A DNA stretch of 54,321 nucleotides from a virus. Both the position numbers and the translations under genes were made by a program. The stretch's first letter is position 1. Each line of letters opens with the position of its first letter. Shown one piece after another: positions 16,198-26,361 of the stretch. The DNA is taken from positions 1-54,321 of the IMG/VR virus record IMGVR_UViG_3300044788_000028; one strand, given 5' to 3'. The notes below the pieces were generated by a model. The model searched no databases. It saw only the letters and a list, made by a program, of their open reading frames with translations, and had not been told where the DNA came from.

Positions 16198-16422
16198 TCA
16201 AGACCTGTTCTGCAAGGTGGTCAAGTGCTCGGCCCACACCCGCATATAGGCAGCGTGTTCGGCACTGGTCGCGCGCCAGAACGTTCTCGGGGCACGTACA
16301 TACCCACACTCGCGGAGAACCGAGCGGAGGGGAAGGTCCGGACGGTGACTACGCGGGTGGGGCGCGTTGGGTTTGATCTCGCACCCCGGATACGGTCTGA
16401 TCCGCAGGTAGTTACGCGGCAT
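16198..16422 (-). CDS. Hypothetical protein (weak)
   Basis: 74-aa ORF in backbone-like G+C. It fills an otherwise 258-bp gap, and its ATG overlaps the nuclease paralog 2 stop by 11 nt. Confidence 0.35.
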   Translation of the reverse strand: MPRNYLRIRPYPGCEIKPNAPHPRSHRPDLPLRSVLRECGYVRAPRTFWRATSAEHAAYMRVWAEHLTTLQNRS

Positions 16423-16810
16423 GGTTTTCTAGGTAGTAAGCAAGCGTGCGTAAAACTATCGCACTATCGCCAGCATGACCTAACACCAAGTTGCATTTCA
16501 TACATAACAACCCACGTACCTTGCCCGTTTTATGATCATGATCCACACCAAGCCGTCGGTGACCGTCGGTTTTCCTGCACCCAAAGCACCTGCCATTCTG
16601 CTTCTTCATTAGCGCACGGTAGTCTTTGACACTCATACTGTGGTGATGTTTCAGCCCGTTACGCAGTTGCGCTGCACTGGCACGGCGATGTGCTGCTTGG
16701 TATATGGAGAGTGCTTTCCGGCAACGTACACACCGGCAACCTTTGCGGTACCGACCACGCGTGCCGTGTGAAAGAACTACTGTGCGAAACCAACCACGAC
16801 CTTTACTCAT
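16412..16810 (-). CDS. Endonuclease VII-type nuclease, paralog 2 (free-standing homing-endonuclease-like)
   Basis: GTRGRYRKGCRCVRCRKA N-terminal motif and CFGC...GVDHDHKTGKVRGLLCMKCN catalytic block. Low-G+C island. The ATG at 16810 overlaps the polA stop as ATGA. Confidence 0.85.
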   Translation of the reverse strand: MSKGRGWFRTVVLSHGTRGRYRKGCRCVRCRKALSIYQAAHRRASAAQLRNGLKHHHSMSVKDYRALMKKQNGRCFGCRKTDGHRRLGVDHDHKTGKVRGLLCMKCNLVLGHAGDSAIVLRTLAYYLENHAA

Positions 16811-18831
16811 GTTGTAATCTCCGGGTGTTTTGCACACCACCAGTTGGCCCCGAGCCCGGCGTCGACCAGCAACGGCACACGCAACGGCATGGCGTCGCGC
16901 ATGATCTCCGCCACGCGGTTGCCCGTGGCTTGGTCGGGGACGCTGATGCCGATCTCGTCGTGTACGGTGACCAGCGGGAGGAACCCCTCGCGGTGCACGG
17001 CGACCAGCGCGGCCTTCATCATGTCTGCGGCGCTCCCTTGGATGAGACGGTTCATCGCCTTGTGCGGCGACTCGTGAGCCGGGAAGCGGCAGCGTCGCCC
17101 GGCAATGGTCTTGATCACCTTGTCCGCCCGCGCTTTCCGCTGGCAGGCGTCGTTCAACTGCTGCACGAACGGGGCGTTGGCGTGGTACTGCTGCATGATA
17201 CGCAGACCCTCTTCGCCCGGCGCTTCCGTACGATTGCCACGGCCATCGTCCACCCACACCGTCGGGAGCCCGAGACGGTGGCACAACGTCACCGCGCCCA
17301 TCCCATACGCCGCGGCGAGGTTGATGGTCTTGGCACTGTCGCGGTCGAGCCCTGTCAGCGTGGCCATGAACTGGTGATAGTCCATGTCGGGGTTGTTCTT
17401 GTACTGCTCGACCGCCGCGGCGGCGCCCACGCAGTTGATCACGTCCGCGTAGTGTACCGTGAGGCGTGGCTCCTGCTGGCTGTAGTCGGCCGCACACCAG
17501 AACTCACCGGGCTCGGGGAGGAACAGGGCGCGCATGGCCGGACCGATCAGCTTGTTCCGTGTGGGGATGTTCTGTAGGTTTGGGTAGCTCGAGCTATAGC
17601 GTCCGCTCACCGTGCCCCCGTCGTCTGACCGCAGCGAGTTGAACTGGCAGTGGACCCTTCCCTTGACGTGCATGTCGAGGATATACCCTTGCGCGAAGGT
17701 ACTGCCCGCCTTGTCGAGCGTGCGCACGGTCAGGACATGCTGCAACCACGGCTCGGCACGCGTGGTCAACCATCCCGCGGTAAAGCTGGGCTGCCCGTGG
17801 GGATTGCGGTCTGTGGGCGCCGTGAACGGGTACACGACCCCCGTCGCTTCGCAGGCCTTGGCAATCGCCTGCGCCTCCCACACCGGGACATCGAACCCGA
17901 CCAACCGCTTGATCTCCCCCTCGAGGGTCTTCTGTTCCTGTGCCCAACGGTCTACCAGGAGCTCCGCGCCCACCGTGTCGACTGCAACCCCGTTGTTCCG
18001 CATGGCAATCAGAATAGGGAGCTGCGCCATCTCGAGGGCGTACACGCGCAGGAGCCGCTCAGACTCAATCTTTGTCGACAGCTTGATGACCAGTTCGCGC
18101 GCGAGCACGGCGTCGGCTTCGGCGTAGGGTCCAACATAGCGCGCCGGGAGAAAGCGCAGTTGTGACTTGAGGTCCGTGAGGTGGTAGTACGCCGCAGCTT
18201 TACGCAGCACGCCTTCGTCCTTGCCGGCGAAGCCGTAATCCTTCGCCACCGCGTCCAGCTTGTAGCTCCGGCGGTGCTCGTCGAGCAGGGACGCCATGAC
18301 GAATCCGTCATGGACCATACCCTTCGGATATCCGCATCCGTACGCCATGCACCATCCGATATCGTAGAGCGCAGAGTAACAACACACGGTCACCGTGGGG
18401 TCAGCAAACAGATCGCGCAACCACGCCATGACGTGCTCGCGGGTCAGCTGGTCGGCGCCGGCTTCTGGATGGCTGAAGGGGAAGTAGGCTTGCCCACCCG
18501 GCCACGCGATCGCGATCCCCAGCACCTCACCTCCGTCCTCGGGGAAGCACCAGCCCGCACCGCGCGACTTGATTGTGCGGTCCCACGTCTCCACGTCCAC
18601 CGCTATGGTGCAGTCGTGCAGGCGGGGAAGCTCGGTAGGGCACGACCACACGGACTCCGGTGGTGGGCCGTAGCCGGGTGTGCCCACCCCAGCCAGCGAC
18701 GTGCCGGCGTTCCCCTCCCGCCCCCGGTGTGCGCGGTCCTGACGCTCCCCGCCCTTCCGCTTGGGCAAGCCGGGGAGATCACCCTTCTTGATGTCCTTCC
18801 AAAAGAACCCGCGCTCGTCGCCGAACTGCAT
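16807..18831 (-). CDS. Family A DNA polymerase with 3'-5' exonuclease domain (T7-like)
   Basis: Exo I motif IAVDVET. Pol motif A DYSQQEPRL, motif B KTINLAAAYGMG and motif C VTVHDEI. ATG at 18831 (TGATG overlap with the upstream nuclease gene). Confidence 0.9.
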   Translation of the reverse strand: MQFGDERGFFWKDIKKGDLPGLPKRKGGERQDRAHRGREGNAGTSLAGVGTPGYGPPPESVWSCPTELPRLHDCTIAVDVETWDRTIKSRGAGWCFPEDGGEVLGIAIAWPGGQAYFPFSHPEAGADQLTREHVMAWLRDLFADPTVTVCCYSALYDIGWCMAYGCGYPKGMVHDGFVMASLLDEHRRSYKLDAVAKDYGFAGKDEGVLRKAAAYYHLTDLKSQLRFLPARYVGPYAEADAVLARELVIKLSTKIESERLLRVYALEMAQLPILIAMRNNGVAVDTVGAELLVDRWAQEQKTLEGEIKRLVGFDVPVWEAQAIAKACEATGVVYPFTAPTDRNPHGQPSFTAGWLTTRAEPWLQHVLTVRTLDKAGSTFAQGYILDMHVKGRVHCQFNSLRSDDGGTVSGRYSSSYPNLQNIPTRNKLIGPAMRALFLPEPGEFWCAADYSQQEPRLTVHYADVINCVGAAAAVEQYKNNPDMDYHQFMATLTGLDRDSAKTINLAAAYGMGAVTLCHRLGLPTVWVDDGRGNRTEAPGEEGLRIMQQYHANAPFVQQLNDACQRKARADKVIKTIAGRRCRFPAHESPHKAMNRLIQGSAADMMKAALVAVHREGFLPLVTVHDEIGISVPDQATGNRVAEIMRDAMPLRVPLLVDAGLGANWWCAKHPEITT

Positions 18832-25074: not shown

Positions 25075-25936
25075 CGTCCGCTTGCCTGTCGGTACGAAGG
25101 AAGACGTGGAGACCCGCTACCCACGGGCTCAGGTATCCATCTTGCGCGTCCGCCTTCAGGTACTCGAGGGCACCGCGCAACGCCTCGGGATGGTAGTTGT
25201 TGGTCGTAGGCAGTGCCATCACTCCTTCTGCCGCCGCACGCAGCACCAGCGGGTCGGGGAGATCCGCGTCCACGAACCCCTGCGCCCGTAGGAGGGTCGC
25301 GTGGTCGTGCCCGGTGGGCGGGTACGCCCCGTCATACGCGGTGTGGGTGTACGCGAGGGCGCTGTACGCACCGGGGGTGGCACACGCCAGCCGCACCGTT
25401 TGCGCCTTGGAGTGGAACATCAGCGGAGTGTGGATACGGAACACCCCGTCACGCAGTCCCAGCGCCTTGGTGATGGCGTGCTCCTGTGCCACCACGAACT
25501 CGAGGCGGCAGTCCGGATAGTTGGCGTTATCTGCTTCGCACACCCCGGTGATCAGGTCGTAGCAGTCCAGTGCCACGGCACGGTTCGCGGCCAACGTCAG
25601 GAAGAAGGCGTTCCGCATGGGCACGAACGTCAACTCGACACGGTCGCCGATGACAGTCGCCATCTGTTGAGCGTCCGCGTATTGCTCAAGGACCTGCGTG
25701 GGGTCGGTGAGCGGGCTGCGGCTGCGCAGGACACCGGGCACGCCGACACTTTGTACGTCAACCCCAGCGCGCGCGGCCACGACGGACGCGGCGTCAAGCT
25801 CTCGACTGTGCCGCTGTCCGTAGTTGACGACCAGCGCATGGACCGGGGAGAAGCGGGACAGCGCCCAATACAAGCAGGTGGTGCTATCCTGCCCACCCGA
25901 TAGCACGACGAGGGCGGGAGACTGGTCCTTTGTCAT
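25061..25936 (-). CDS. queC: 7-cyano-7-deazaguanine synthase-like protein lacking the Zn-Cys cluster, with a C-terminal extension
   Basis: ALVVLSGGQDSTTCLYWAL (PP-loop), NYGQRHSREL, ITGVCEADNANYPDCRLEFV. Where E. coli QueC has CYNG...CGHCAACNLR, this protein reads AYDGAYPPTGHDHATLLRAQGF. ATG at 25936 (ATGA overlap). Confidence 0.8.
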   Translation of the reverse strand: MTKDQSPALVVLSGGQDSTTCLYWALSRFSPVHALVVNYGQRHSRELDAASVVAARAGVDVQSVGVPGVLRSRSPLTDPTQVLEQYADAQQMATVIGDRVELTFVPMRNAFFLTLAANRAVALDCYDLITGVCEADNANYPDCRLEFVVAQEHAITKALGLRDGVFRIHTPLMFHSKAQTVRLACATPGAYSALAYTHTAYDGAYPPTGHDHATLLRAQGFVDADLPDPLVLRAAAEGVMALPTTNNYHPEALRGALEYLKADAQDGYLSPWVAGLHVFLRTDRQADGAHA

Positions 25937-26361
25937 TGATGTTTCCTGATGTAGTTGGTGAGGTGCTTTGCCGTGGTGTGATTGTCGCCGACACAACCCA
26001 CCGCGCGGTTGCACTTGGCACACAGCAAACCACGCGTCTTTCCTGTTGCGTGGTTATGATCAACAGCAAGGCGTATTTTACGTGGTGGTTCTAAGCACAC
26101 TGCACAGACCCCGCGCTGTTGTTCAAGCAGGGATTCATACTGCGTGATTGTCAGACCATACAATCGTTTCAGACGCGCTTTACGCGGCATGTGTGGATTA
26201 CGACGCCGGTAATCAGCCATCCGTTTGGTTGCTGCTTTTCGACACACACCACAGCGGCAGCCGCGTGTATATCGAAAGTTACTGTGCGGTATCCCTAAAA
26301 CACCAAGGCCCCTCCGCTGTTGCAGAGGGGCGTTGGTGTTTTGTCGGCGAACGCGCATCAC
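25933..26361 (-). CDS. Endonuclease VII-type nuclease, paralog 6
   Basis: NFRYTRGCRCGVCRKA and CAVC...AVDHNHATGKTRGLLCAKCN. Low-G+C island. Stop-start overlaps at both ends. Confidence 0.85.
   Translation of the reverse strand: MMRVRRQNTNAPLQQRRGLGVLGIPHSNFRYTRGCRCGVCRKAATKRMADYRRRNPHMPRKARLKRLYGLTITQYESLLEQQRGVCAVCLEPPRKIRLAVDHNHATGKTRGLLCAKCNRAVGCVGDNHTTAKHLTNYIRKHQ

Follow-up and report, generated by a model that had tools for sequence, protein, structure and literature searches.

Why does a single phage genome carry six small nuclease genes of the endonuclease VII (Endo VII) type, several of them wedged between genes for 7-deazaguanine DNA modification and DNA replication? The question is raised by the window, i.e. 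the whole 54,321-nucleotide stretch of the virus record IMGVR_UViG_3300044788_000028, in which the six genes are called N1 to N6. A preliminary description of this DNA offered two answers, homing endonucleases or partners of the modification genes. The first is very probably correct: the six genes appear to be selfish, free-standing homing endonuclease genes with an Endo VII motif, located at intergenic junctions of one Queuovirinae-like siphovirus lineage. This answer draws its support from empty syntenic junctions in relatives, from an atypical composition, and from F-CphI, a homing enzyme with the same domain order (PMC6083498).

The six open reading frames (ORFs) encode proteins of 125–163 amino acids (aa) on the minus strand and carry the block DH.H..G..RG.LC..CN. 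A six-frame regular-expression scan of the window found exactly six such ORFs. All six match Pfam PF02945 (Endonuclease_7) with E-values of 1.1e-19 to 1.5e-24 and also match PHROG families for endonuclease VII, which bears out the shared catalytic block that had been noticed from the letters. NCBIfam gave no meaningful match for the nucleases. The catalytic D, H, H, R and N (alignment positions D89, H90, H92, R98 and N106) and four zinc-binding Cys are invariant in all six proteins, and the five catalytic residues are also invariant across 90 homologues. The catalytic domain is C-terminal, with the Pfam match spanning about residues 45–130 of the 125–163-aa proteins. The family is large, with 3065 homologues at E<=1e-10 in a big protein database, and it matches 1713 phage records at 1785 places, nearly always as a single copy. 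Six copies of a usually single-copy family is the notable point of this genome. The pairwise identity among the six proteins is just 32–47%, which rules out a recent duplication within the genome. No decayed extra copies were found in the window.

N1 (4158–4550, minus strand; Pfam E 3.8e-20; G+C 0.51) has 130 aa when read from GTG at 4550, and its start is uncertain, with ATG at 4502 or 4598 as alternatives. It lies between an exonuclease gene (5326–6762) and a Band_7 gene (3586–4158), both on the minus strand. The other five genes, also on the minus strand, are located between 16412 and 26361. N2 (16412–16810, 132 aa, Pfam E 2.5e-22, G+C 0.51) directly follows polA. N3 (18831–19322, Pfam E 2.1e-20) lies between queE and polA and has an ambiguous start, either ATG at 19322 (163 aa, 60 nt inside queE) or GTG at 19268 (145 aa); the JGI gene call is the 163-aa form. 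N4 (20034–20462, 142 aa, Pfam E 1.7e-24, G+C 0.49) is upstream of queE, and N5 (23739–24116, 125 aa, Pfam E 1.5e-24) is between folE and queD. N6 (25933–26361, 141–142 aa, Pfam E 1.1e-19, G+C 0.54) is between a conserved hypothetical gene of 221 aa and queC. The catalytic block, in its longer form C..C...DH.H.TG..RG.LC..CN, occupies 23814–23921 in N5, and the other copies are at 4233–4349, 16490–16588, 18909–19025, 20115–20204 and 26008–26106, all on the minus strand. A position inside an intron or intein is ruled out, because all six genes are between genes and none is within one.

The ends of the window share an exact direct overlap of 127 bp (1–127 and 54195–54321), so the window is a complete circular assembly of a phage genome of about 54.2 kb, and six is the whole-genome count of the nuclease genes. 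Together they make up about 4.6% of the 54-kb genome. The window is a contig from a JGI metagenome; its G+C content is 64%, and all credible genes are on the minus strand.

The nuclease genes are clearly different in base composition. Their G+C is 0.49–0.55 and their G+C at third codon positions (GC3) is 0.48–0.51 (0.49 for N1), versus 0.646 ± 0.021 and 0.834 ± 0.035 for 48 backbone genes, which gives z-scores of -4.7 to -7.5 for G+C and -9.3 to -10.2 for GC3. The minima over 100-bp windows within the nuclease genes are 38–48% G+C. When 300-bp windows were scanned, seven stretches of the genome fell below 56% G+C; six of them are the nuclease genes and the seventh (11351–11800) is non-coding. 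The AT-richer islands reported earlier were therefore reproduced by windowed G+C and codon usage, but the hand-counted 42–53% G+C was slightly too low for whole genes, which measure 49–55%. These results indicate that the composition of the nuclease genes is foreign to the backbone.

To place the genome, the region was compared by megablast with 50,697 phage records. No match was obtained, so there is no close cultured relative among them. The window polA and dpdA proteins are just 36–37% identical to those of Queuovirinae-like siphoviruses (Pseudomonas phages PaMx11 and PaMx25), and the module order queE/queC/queD/folE-dpdA-clamp-polA is common to the window and PaMx25 (NC_041953). A protein search with polA led to two close relatives, whose polymerases (P0002 and P0003) are 70–71% identical to that of the window. 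The first relative is the NCBI contig JAWVHB010001164.1 (54,066 bp; L001/L004, with matching Logan contigs L002/L005), which is permuted relative to the window. The second is a pair of Logan contigs from SRR29078153 (L003/L006). The comparison covered about 63 kb of their DNA, i.e. about 32 kb in L001/L004 and about 31 kb in L003/L006, and left out positions 1–21708 (about 22 kb) of JAWVHB010001164.1. The polA proteins of L001 and L003 are 67% identical, and all pairs of the three lineages are at 67–71%, so that the three appear about equally distant from each other. A single-protein scan of IMG/VR with polA gave no match, and an alignment-based scan gave 80 viral loci at an identity of just 37–40%, with no que genes and no Endo VII genes, which are useful as negative background alone.

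The junctions at which the six nuclease genes lie are empty in both relatives. Both show the order helicase-hypothetical-queC-folE-queD-dpdA-small ORF-clamp-(nudix)-queE-polA, and in both the exonuclease gene is directly followed by Band_7. Their genes at these junctions overlap or are 1–3 nt apart, with two exceptions: in L001, 121 nt separate queC from the gene upstream, and in L006 there are 6 nt in front of Band_7. The nudix and queE genes of L003 overlap each other directly. The window backbone genes each have a counterpart in the relatives, versus none of the six nucleases, and no nuclease gene is present at any of the six junctions in either relative. When N1–N6 were searched by tblastn against the covered DNA of the relatives, nothing was found at E<0.1. 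The same procedure readily found Endo VII genes in two control contigs. The check for presence or absence at otherwise syntenic junctions, which the preliminary description had called for, thus came out as expected for mobile genes.

Two junctions could be followed in DNA alignments. Between folE and queD, homology extends to the upstream stop codon and resumes right at the queD start, leaving 375 nt found only in the window (N5). Between queE and polA, homology extends to the queE stop codon and resumes about 20 nt inside polA, leaving about 430 nt found only in the window (N3). The insertion boundaries are clean at both junctions. As the three lineages are about equally distant, six gains in the window lineage are far more parsimonious than twelve precise losses.

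The nuclease genes are also tightly packed against their neighbours. ATGA overlaps join the polA stop to the N2 start, the N5 stop to the queD start and the N6 stop to the queC start. The other stop/start overlaps are TGATG at N3/polA, ATGCTGA at N4/queE and TAGTG at N1/Band_7. N6 overlaps its neighbours at both ends, by GTGA at its 5' end and by ATGA at its 3' end. The last Arg-Arg codons of N1 (CGGAGG), N3 (CGGAGG) and N5 (CGGAGA), which belong to a conserved C-terminal Y-I/L-R-R, form a GGAG/GGAGG Shine-Dalgarno-like element 8–12 nt before the downstream start codon. The corresponding matches are weaker in N6 (AGGAAA) and N4 (AAGAGA), and none was seen in N2. A promoter and terminator scan of 15800–27200 gave counts no higher than shuffled sequence. 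At 26308–26331 on the minus strand, 30–53 nt downstream of the N6 start, lies a G+C-rich hairpin of 10 bp (GCCCCTCTGC...GCGGAGGGGC) that has a weak T tail. It is reminiscent of the terminators that T4 mobE and segF contain near their 5' ends (PMC2988022), although terminator-like matches in the region are no commoner than in shuffled sequence. Taken together, the nuclease genes are accessory, foreign in composition and precisely intergenic, and they encode intact Endo VII-type nucleases.

Homing would proceed in two steps. A co-infecting relative lacking the gene would be cut in or near the conserved flanking gene (queC, queD, queE, polA or Band_7). Recombinational repair from the nuclease-bearing genome would then copy the nuclease gene and its flanking markers into the recipient. 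This cut-and-repair mechanism is likely by analogy with the nuclease family and with the T4 paradigm (PMC2988022). The insertions would be tolerated through their same-strand intergenic sites, where the overlap of the nuclease stop with the downstream start, together with the Shine-Dalgarno-like codons of N1, N3 and N5, would preserve translation of the downstream gene. The clustering among deazaguanine and replication genes most likely reflects the conserved genes that potential co-infecting relatives have in common, and does not point to a functional link with the modification.

Several observations weigh against homing as the full account. The searched databases hold only two close relatives, both about 30% diverged, and no near-identical genome with partial occupancy of the six sites was found in them. 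The slot of N2 is taken in the relatives by a conserved gene of 69/79 aa with a CWCGP motif (L001 9565–9774, L003 10501–10740). No counterpart of this gene was found in the window, so N2 did not simply insert but took the place of a gene. Next to N1 and N4 there is further unmatched DNA without equivalent in the relatives. Beside N1 (4459–5338), this DNA holds an acidic, Cys-rich ORF of 207 aa, the 3' end of which runs into N1, and a hydrophobic ORF of 46 aa (5198–5338); upstream of N4 it holds a 102-aa ORF (20455–20763) that is absent from the relatives. At 15850–16309, an ORF of 116 aa with a G+C of 0.58 stands in for most of a gene that encodes 307/332 aa in the relatives; only the first 31 codons of that gene are left in the window. 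No family match was found for the 207-, 46-, 102- and 116-aa ORFs (Pfam at E<=1 for the last two). The earlier statement that each gene is inserted exactly between two genes with overlapping stop and start codons consequently holds for the tight packing, but not for N2, which replaces a gene, or for N1 and N4, which bring extra DNA. Moreover, N3–N6 are as similar to each other as to their best database homologues, so they may represent an old expansion within the window lineage rather than independent invasions or repeated acquisition from one pool. The intact active sites in all six fit either recent spread or some benefit to the phage, since purely selfish genes tend to decay after fixation. 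Finally, homing activity, a target site and biased inheritance are properties that we infer for the six genes from their family.

N2–N6 share the N-terminal motif RY..GCRC..C[KR].A, as had been described for five of the six nucleases, but the leading GT of the proposed motif is not equally shared: HGT is found in four nucleases only, N6 has HSNF, and N1 keeps a degenerate remnant of the motif. The module HGT..RY..GCRC..C[KR].A is located at 24048–24104 in N5, and the other copies are at 16712–16768 (N2), 19152–19232 (N3), 20394–20453 (N4) and 26233–26286 (N6), all on the minus strand. A profile built from these five copies retrieved 4022 cluster representatives at E<=1e-3. Most of the module-bearing proteins have 2–8 tandem copies (among P0361–P0509), and some combine the module with helix-turn-helix domains or, after four repeats, with an Endo VII domain (P0366, P0140). 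No Pfam model matches the N-terminal segments up to E<=10. The module is probably a DNA-binding unit of Cys/His residues and a basic helix, in which the His and three Cys may build a zinc knuckle in front of the basic helix. Its part may resemble that of the NUMOD modules of other homing enzymes. The tandem repeat HGT..Y..GCRC..C..A may be an undescribed DNA-binding repeat. In an AlphaFold2 model of N5, with a predicted local distance difference test score (pLDDT) of 88.9, the first 20 residues are of low confidence.

The catalytic core was compared with known structures. The best sequence matches in the PDB are Hpy99I (3fc3, E 2e-5), including its C-terminal helix, and then T4 Endo VII (E 0.0085), for which the alignment (1e7d/1en7) spans only residues 18–69 of 157. 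The AlphaFold2 model likewise ranks the fold of Hpy99I first and that of T4 Endo VII next, and both matches are confined to the catalytic core. PADLOC gave a single match for all six proteins, the type II restriction enzyme model REase_II PDLC03494.

These matches bear first on the possibility that at least one of the six is a housekeeping nuclease, i.e. a Holliday-junction resolvase like T4 gp49, a host-DNA degrader or an HNH factor for packaging. The Pfam family is named after the T4 resolvase, no other resolvase was identified among the window genes scanned (a scan short of every gene), and many mycobacteriophages carry a single gene annotated as endonuclease VII. However, the partial match to T4 Endo VII comes with a reversed domain order and without the dimerisation domain. 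In the only study that treats this family as homing enzymes, the proteins whose motif is C-terminal, among them F-CphI, intron-encoded enzymes and Hpy99I, fall into an endonuclease clade apart from the resolvases with an N-terminal motif (PMC6083498). The relatives have the same replication module but no homologue in the 63 kb examined, and six copies with atypical codon usage are unlike core genes. A housekeeping function is therefore improbable. A resolvase role in particular is unlikely, though one of the six could moonlight as a resolvase. A packaging HNH role is ruled out, since none of the six adjoins terL (9208–10521).

A restriction-modification-like exclusion, in which the nucleases would attack host or competitor DNA that lacks the modification and spare the phage's own DNA, protected by 7-deazaguanine, is still less probable. 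Five of the six genes are inside or adjoin the queC/folE/queD/dpdA/queE module, the nearest match of the catalytic domain, Hpy99I, is a genuine type II restriction enzyme, and active sites are intact in all six nucleases. Also counted in its favour is the work of Hutinet 2019, according to which, as cited in PMC8594841 and PMC8056088, many restriction enzymes are blocked by 7-deazaguanine modification. The genes of the module allow some prediction of the modification. folE has a 135-aa N-terminal extension without family match (Pfam E<=1), which is conserved in both relatives (332 and 336 aa), and queC encodes a long product of about 291 aa. Scans of the window detected neither queF nor arcS nor an amidotransferase domain, so the predicted modification would be dPreQ0-like.

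The comparative data do not follow the pairing of nucleases with modification. Both close relatives have the full deazaguanine cluster but no Endo VII gene. No Endo VII gene was found in 25 IMG/VR dpdA loci (376 kb, many with the dpdA-clamp-polA layout) or in the PaMx25 module. The nuclease family occurs in 1713 phage records versus 230 for dpdA, about seven times more, and an unrelated contig (L112) has Endo VII genes without que genes. Within the window, N1 is far from the modification genes, in the structural region and about 12 kb from the nearest other copy, and polA has N2 and N3 on its two sides. A single self/non-self switch would not need six divergent paralogs, each with a DNA-binding module of its own. 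In related Queuovirinae, about 1/4 to 1/3 of the deoxyguanosine (dG) is modified (PMC8594841), and such partial modification would make self-protection leaky. The relatives, as the presumed targets, possess these modification genes as well. With no co-occurrence in the two relatives, the 25 dpdA loci or PaMx25, the pair suggested in the preliminary description gains no comparative support.

An intermediate possibility is that the homing enzymes are blocked by 7-deazaguanine at their recognition sites, so that the modification module doubles as an immunity factor for the selfish nucleases. If true, this would be a phage-borne, modification-gated system spread by homing, which excludes co-infecting phages or degrades host DNA lacking the modification or not yet modified. 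Since homing partners share the modification genes, a modification-blocked nuclease would be a poor homing enzyme, and we consider this possibility highly improbable. Least probable of all is that the genes are ancestral and were precisely deleted from the other two lineages: N3–N6 are each other's near-best matches, which fits an old resident family, but the loss would need about twelve precise deletions restoring tight junctions in two independent lineages, the more distant dpdA-clamp-polA modules also lack nuclease genes, no pseudogene remnants were found at the relatives' junctions at E<0.1, and a GC3 of about 0.49 versus 0.83 shows none of the adjustment to the backbone expected after long residence.

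The genes around the nucleases were assigned by Pfam and PHROG matches. Along the direction of transcription the order is UvrD helicase, 221-aa hypothetical, N6, queC, folE, N5, queD and dpdA, and then a 46-aa ORF, clamp, nudix, the 102-aa ORF, N4, queE, N3, polA and N2. This bears out the order given earlier, except that its labels 'H1-like' for the 221-aa protein and 'gpt' for the folE extension were not verified, with no Pfam match at E<=1. The backbone 7-deazaguanine and replication module (19261–26023, minus strand), interrupted by N3–N6, comprises on the same strand queC (25061–25936), folE (24118–25074), queD (23206–23742), dpdA (22322–23209), the small 46-aa ORF (22185–22325), clamp (21178–22188), nudix (20702–21181) and queE (19261–20040). 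The polA gene (16807–18831, minus strand) encodes a family A DNA polymerase of 674 aa (Pfam PF00476, E 2e-47), with N3 upstream and N2 downstream.

The replication genes of the window include two UvrD-like helicases, a protein with an archaeo-eukaryotic-type primase domain, an SNF2 helicase and a DUF4406-DUF6378 protein that is nucleoside deoxyribosyltransferase-like. Their coordinates, in the order in which they are listed, are 27108–29000, 31455–33158, 33011–34603, 36667–38217 and 14629–15417, all on the minus strand. The only low-G+C stretch that is not a nuclease gene, the non-coding region 11351–11800 upstream of the terminase region, holds a 47-nt inverted repeat (11487–11533 and 11652–11698) with 96% complementarity and a 118-nt AT-rich spacer. 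In the relatives, about 600 nt are likewise non-coding at the corresponding place (L001 15517–16115, L003 18553–19111). The region may act as a replication origin, as a pac/cos site or as a regulatory element.

If the six genes are homing endonuclease genes, the window is a clean natural example of several such genes invading one complete genome, with six sites empty in two relatives. The empty-site comparison gives candidate target regions for a family in which F-CphI alone has been characterised. It also cautions against over-reading gene neighbourhood, because the modification genes would be conserved landing sites and not functional partners. The widespread HGT..Y..GCRC..C tandem-repeat motif without Pfam match may be of use for annotation.

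Among known systems, the Queuovirinae module of PaMx25 resembles that of the window in having queE, queC, queD, folE, dpdA, clamp and polA on one strand downstream of a helicase. It differs in having no Endo VII genes, and its identity to the window is about 36–37%. T4 endonuclease VII (gp49; PDB 1en7, 2qnc) shares the Pfam family and the catalytic and zinc-binding residues. In contrast, its catalytic domain is N-terminal and followed by a dimerisation domain, whereas that of the window nucleases is C-terminal with no dimerisation domain, and the window nuclease genes are not conserved in the relatives.

For the catalytic beta-beta-alpha-metal domain, with the C-terminal helix included, Hpy99I ranks first both by sequence and by fold. 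The identity is about 26–30% over about 80–90 residues, and the N-terminal recognition domains of Hpy99I are absent in the window nucleases. Unlike Hpy99I, the window nucleases are phage-borne, in six copies and without an adjacent methyltransferase. Pfam and PHROG gave no methyltransferase family among the neighbours of all six, which are que genes, polA, Band_7, nudix, exonuclease and unmatched ORFs of 221, 102, 74 and 207 aa. Several nucleases of the Endo VII family per genome are not unique to the window. The contig L112 (Logan SRR30464925, 30% G+C, from an unrelated phage) has two Endo VII genes and one HNH gene within 4 kb (6893–7306, 9078–9518 and 10001–10444), among Metallophos, RNA-ligase, YqaJ and SSB genes.

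The closest parallels are free-standing homing endonucleases. Genes of this kind are intergenic, lie between genes conserved among related phages, and cause marker exclusion (PMC2988022). The seg and mob genes of T4 (Edgell et al. 2010, PMC2988022) are likewise small intergenic nuclease genes between conserved genes, with presence/absence polymorphism and enrichment in the nucleotide-metabolism and replication regions of a modified-DNA genome, at a density comparable to that of the window (15 in 169 kb versus 6 in 54 kb). They differ in belonging to the GIY-YIG and canonical HNH families, versus the Endo VII motif in the window, and in that their cleavage sites and marker exclusion are proven in T4. 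F-CphI of cyanophage S-PM2, which bears its Endo VII motif at the C-terminus, has been proven to be a homing endonuclease of the free-standing type (Fang et al. 2018, PMC6083498), and the name 'DHHRN' was proposed for its family by the same authors. The window nucleases differ from it at the N-terminus, where they carry a single HGT..Y..GCRC..C module, and in having no associated group I intron and six copies in one genome. Like F-CphI and the DHHRN family, they are small proteins encoded by free-standing genes between phage genes, with an Endo VII motif of D, H, H, R and N in their C-terminal part, and, as for F-CphI, the catalytic core is modelled on Hpy99I.

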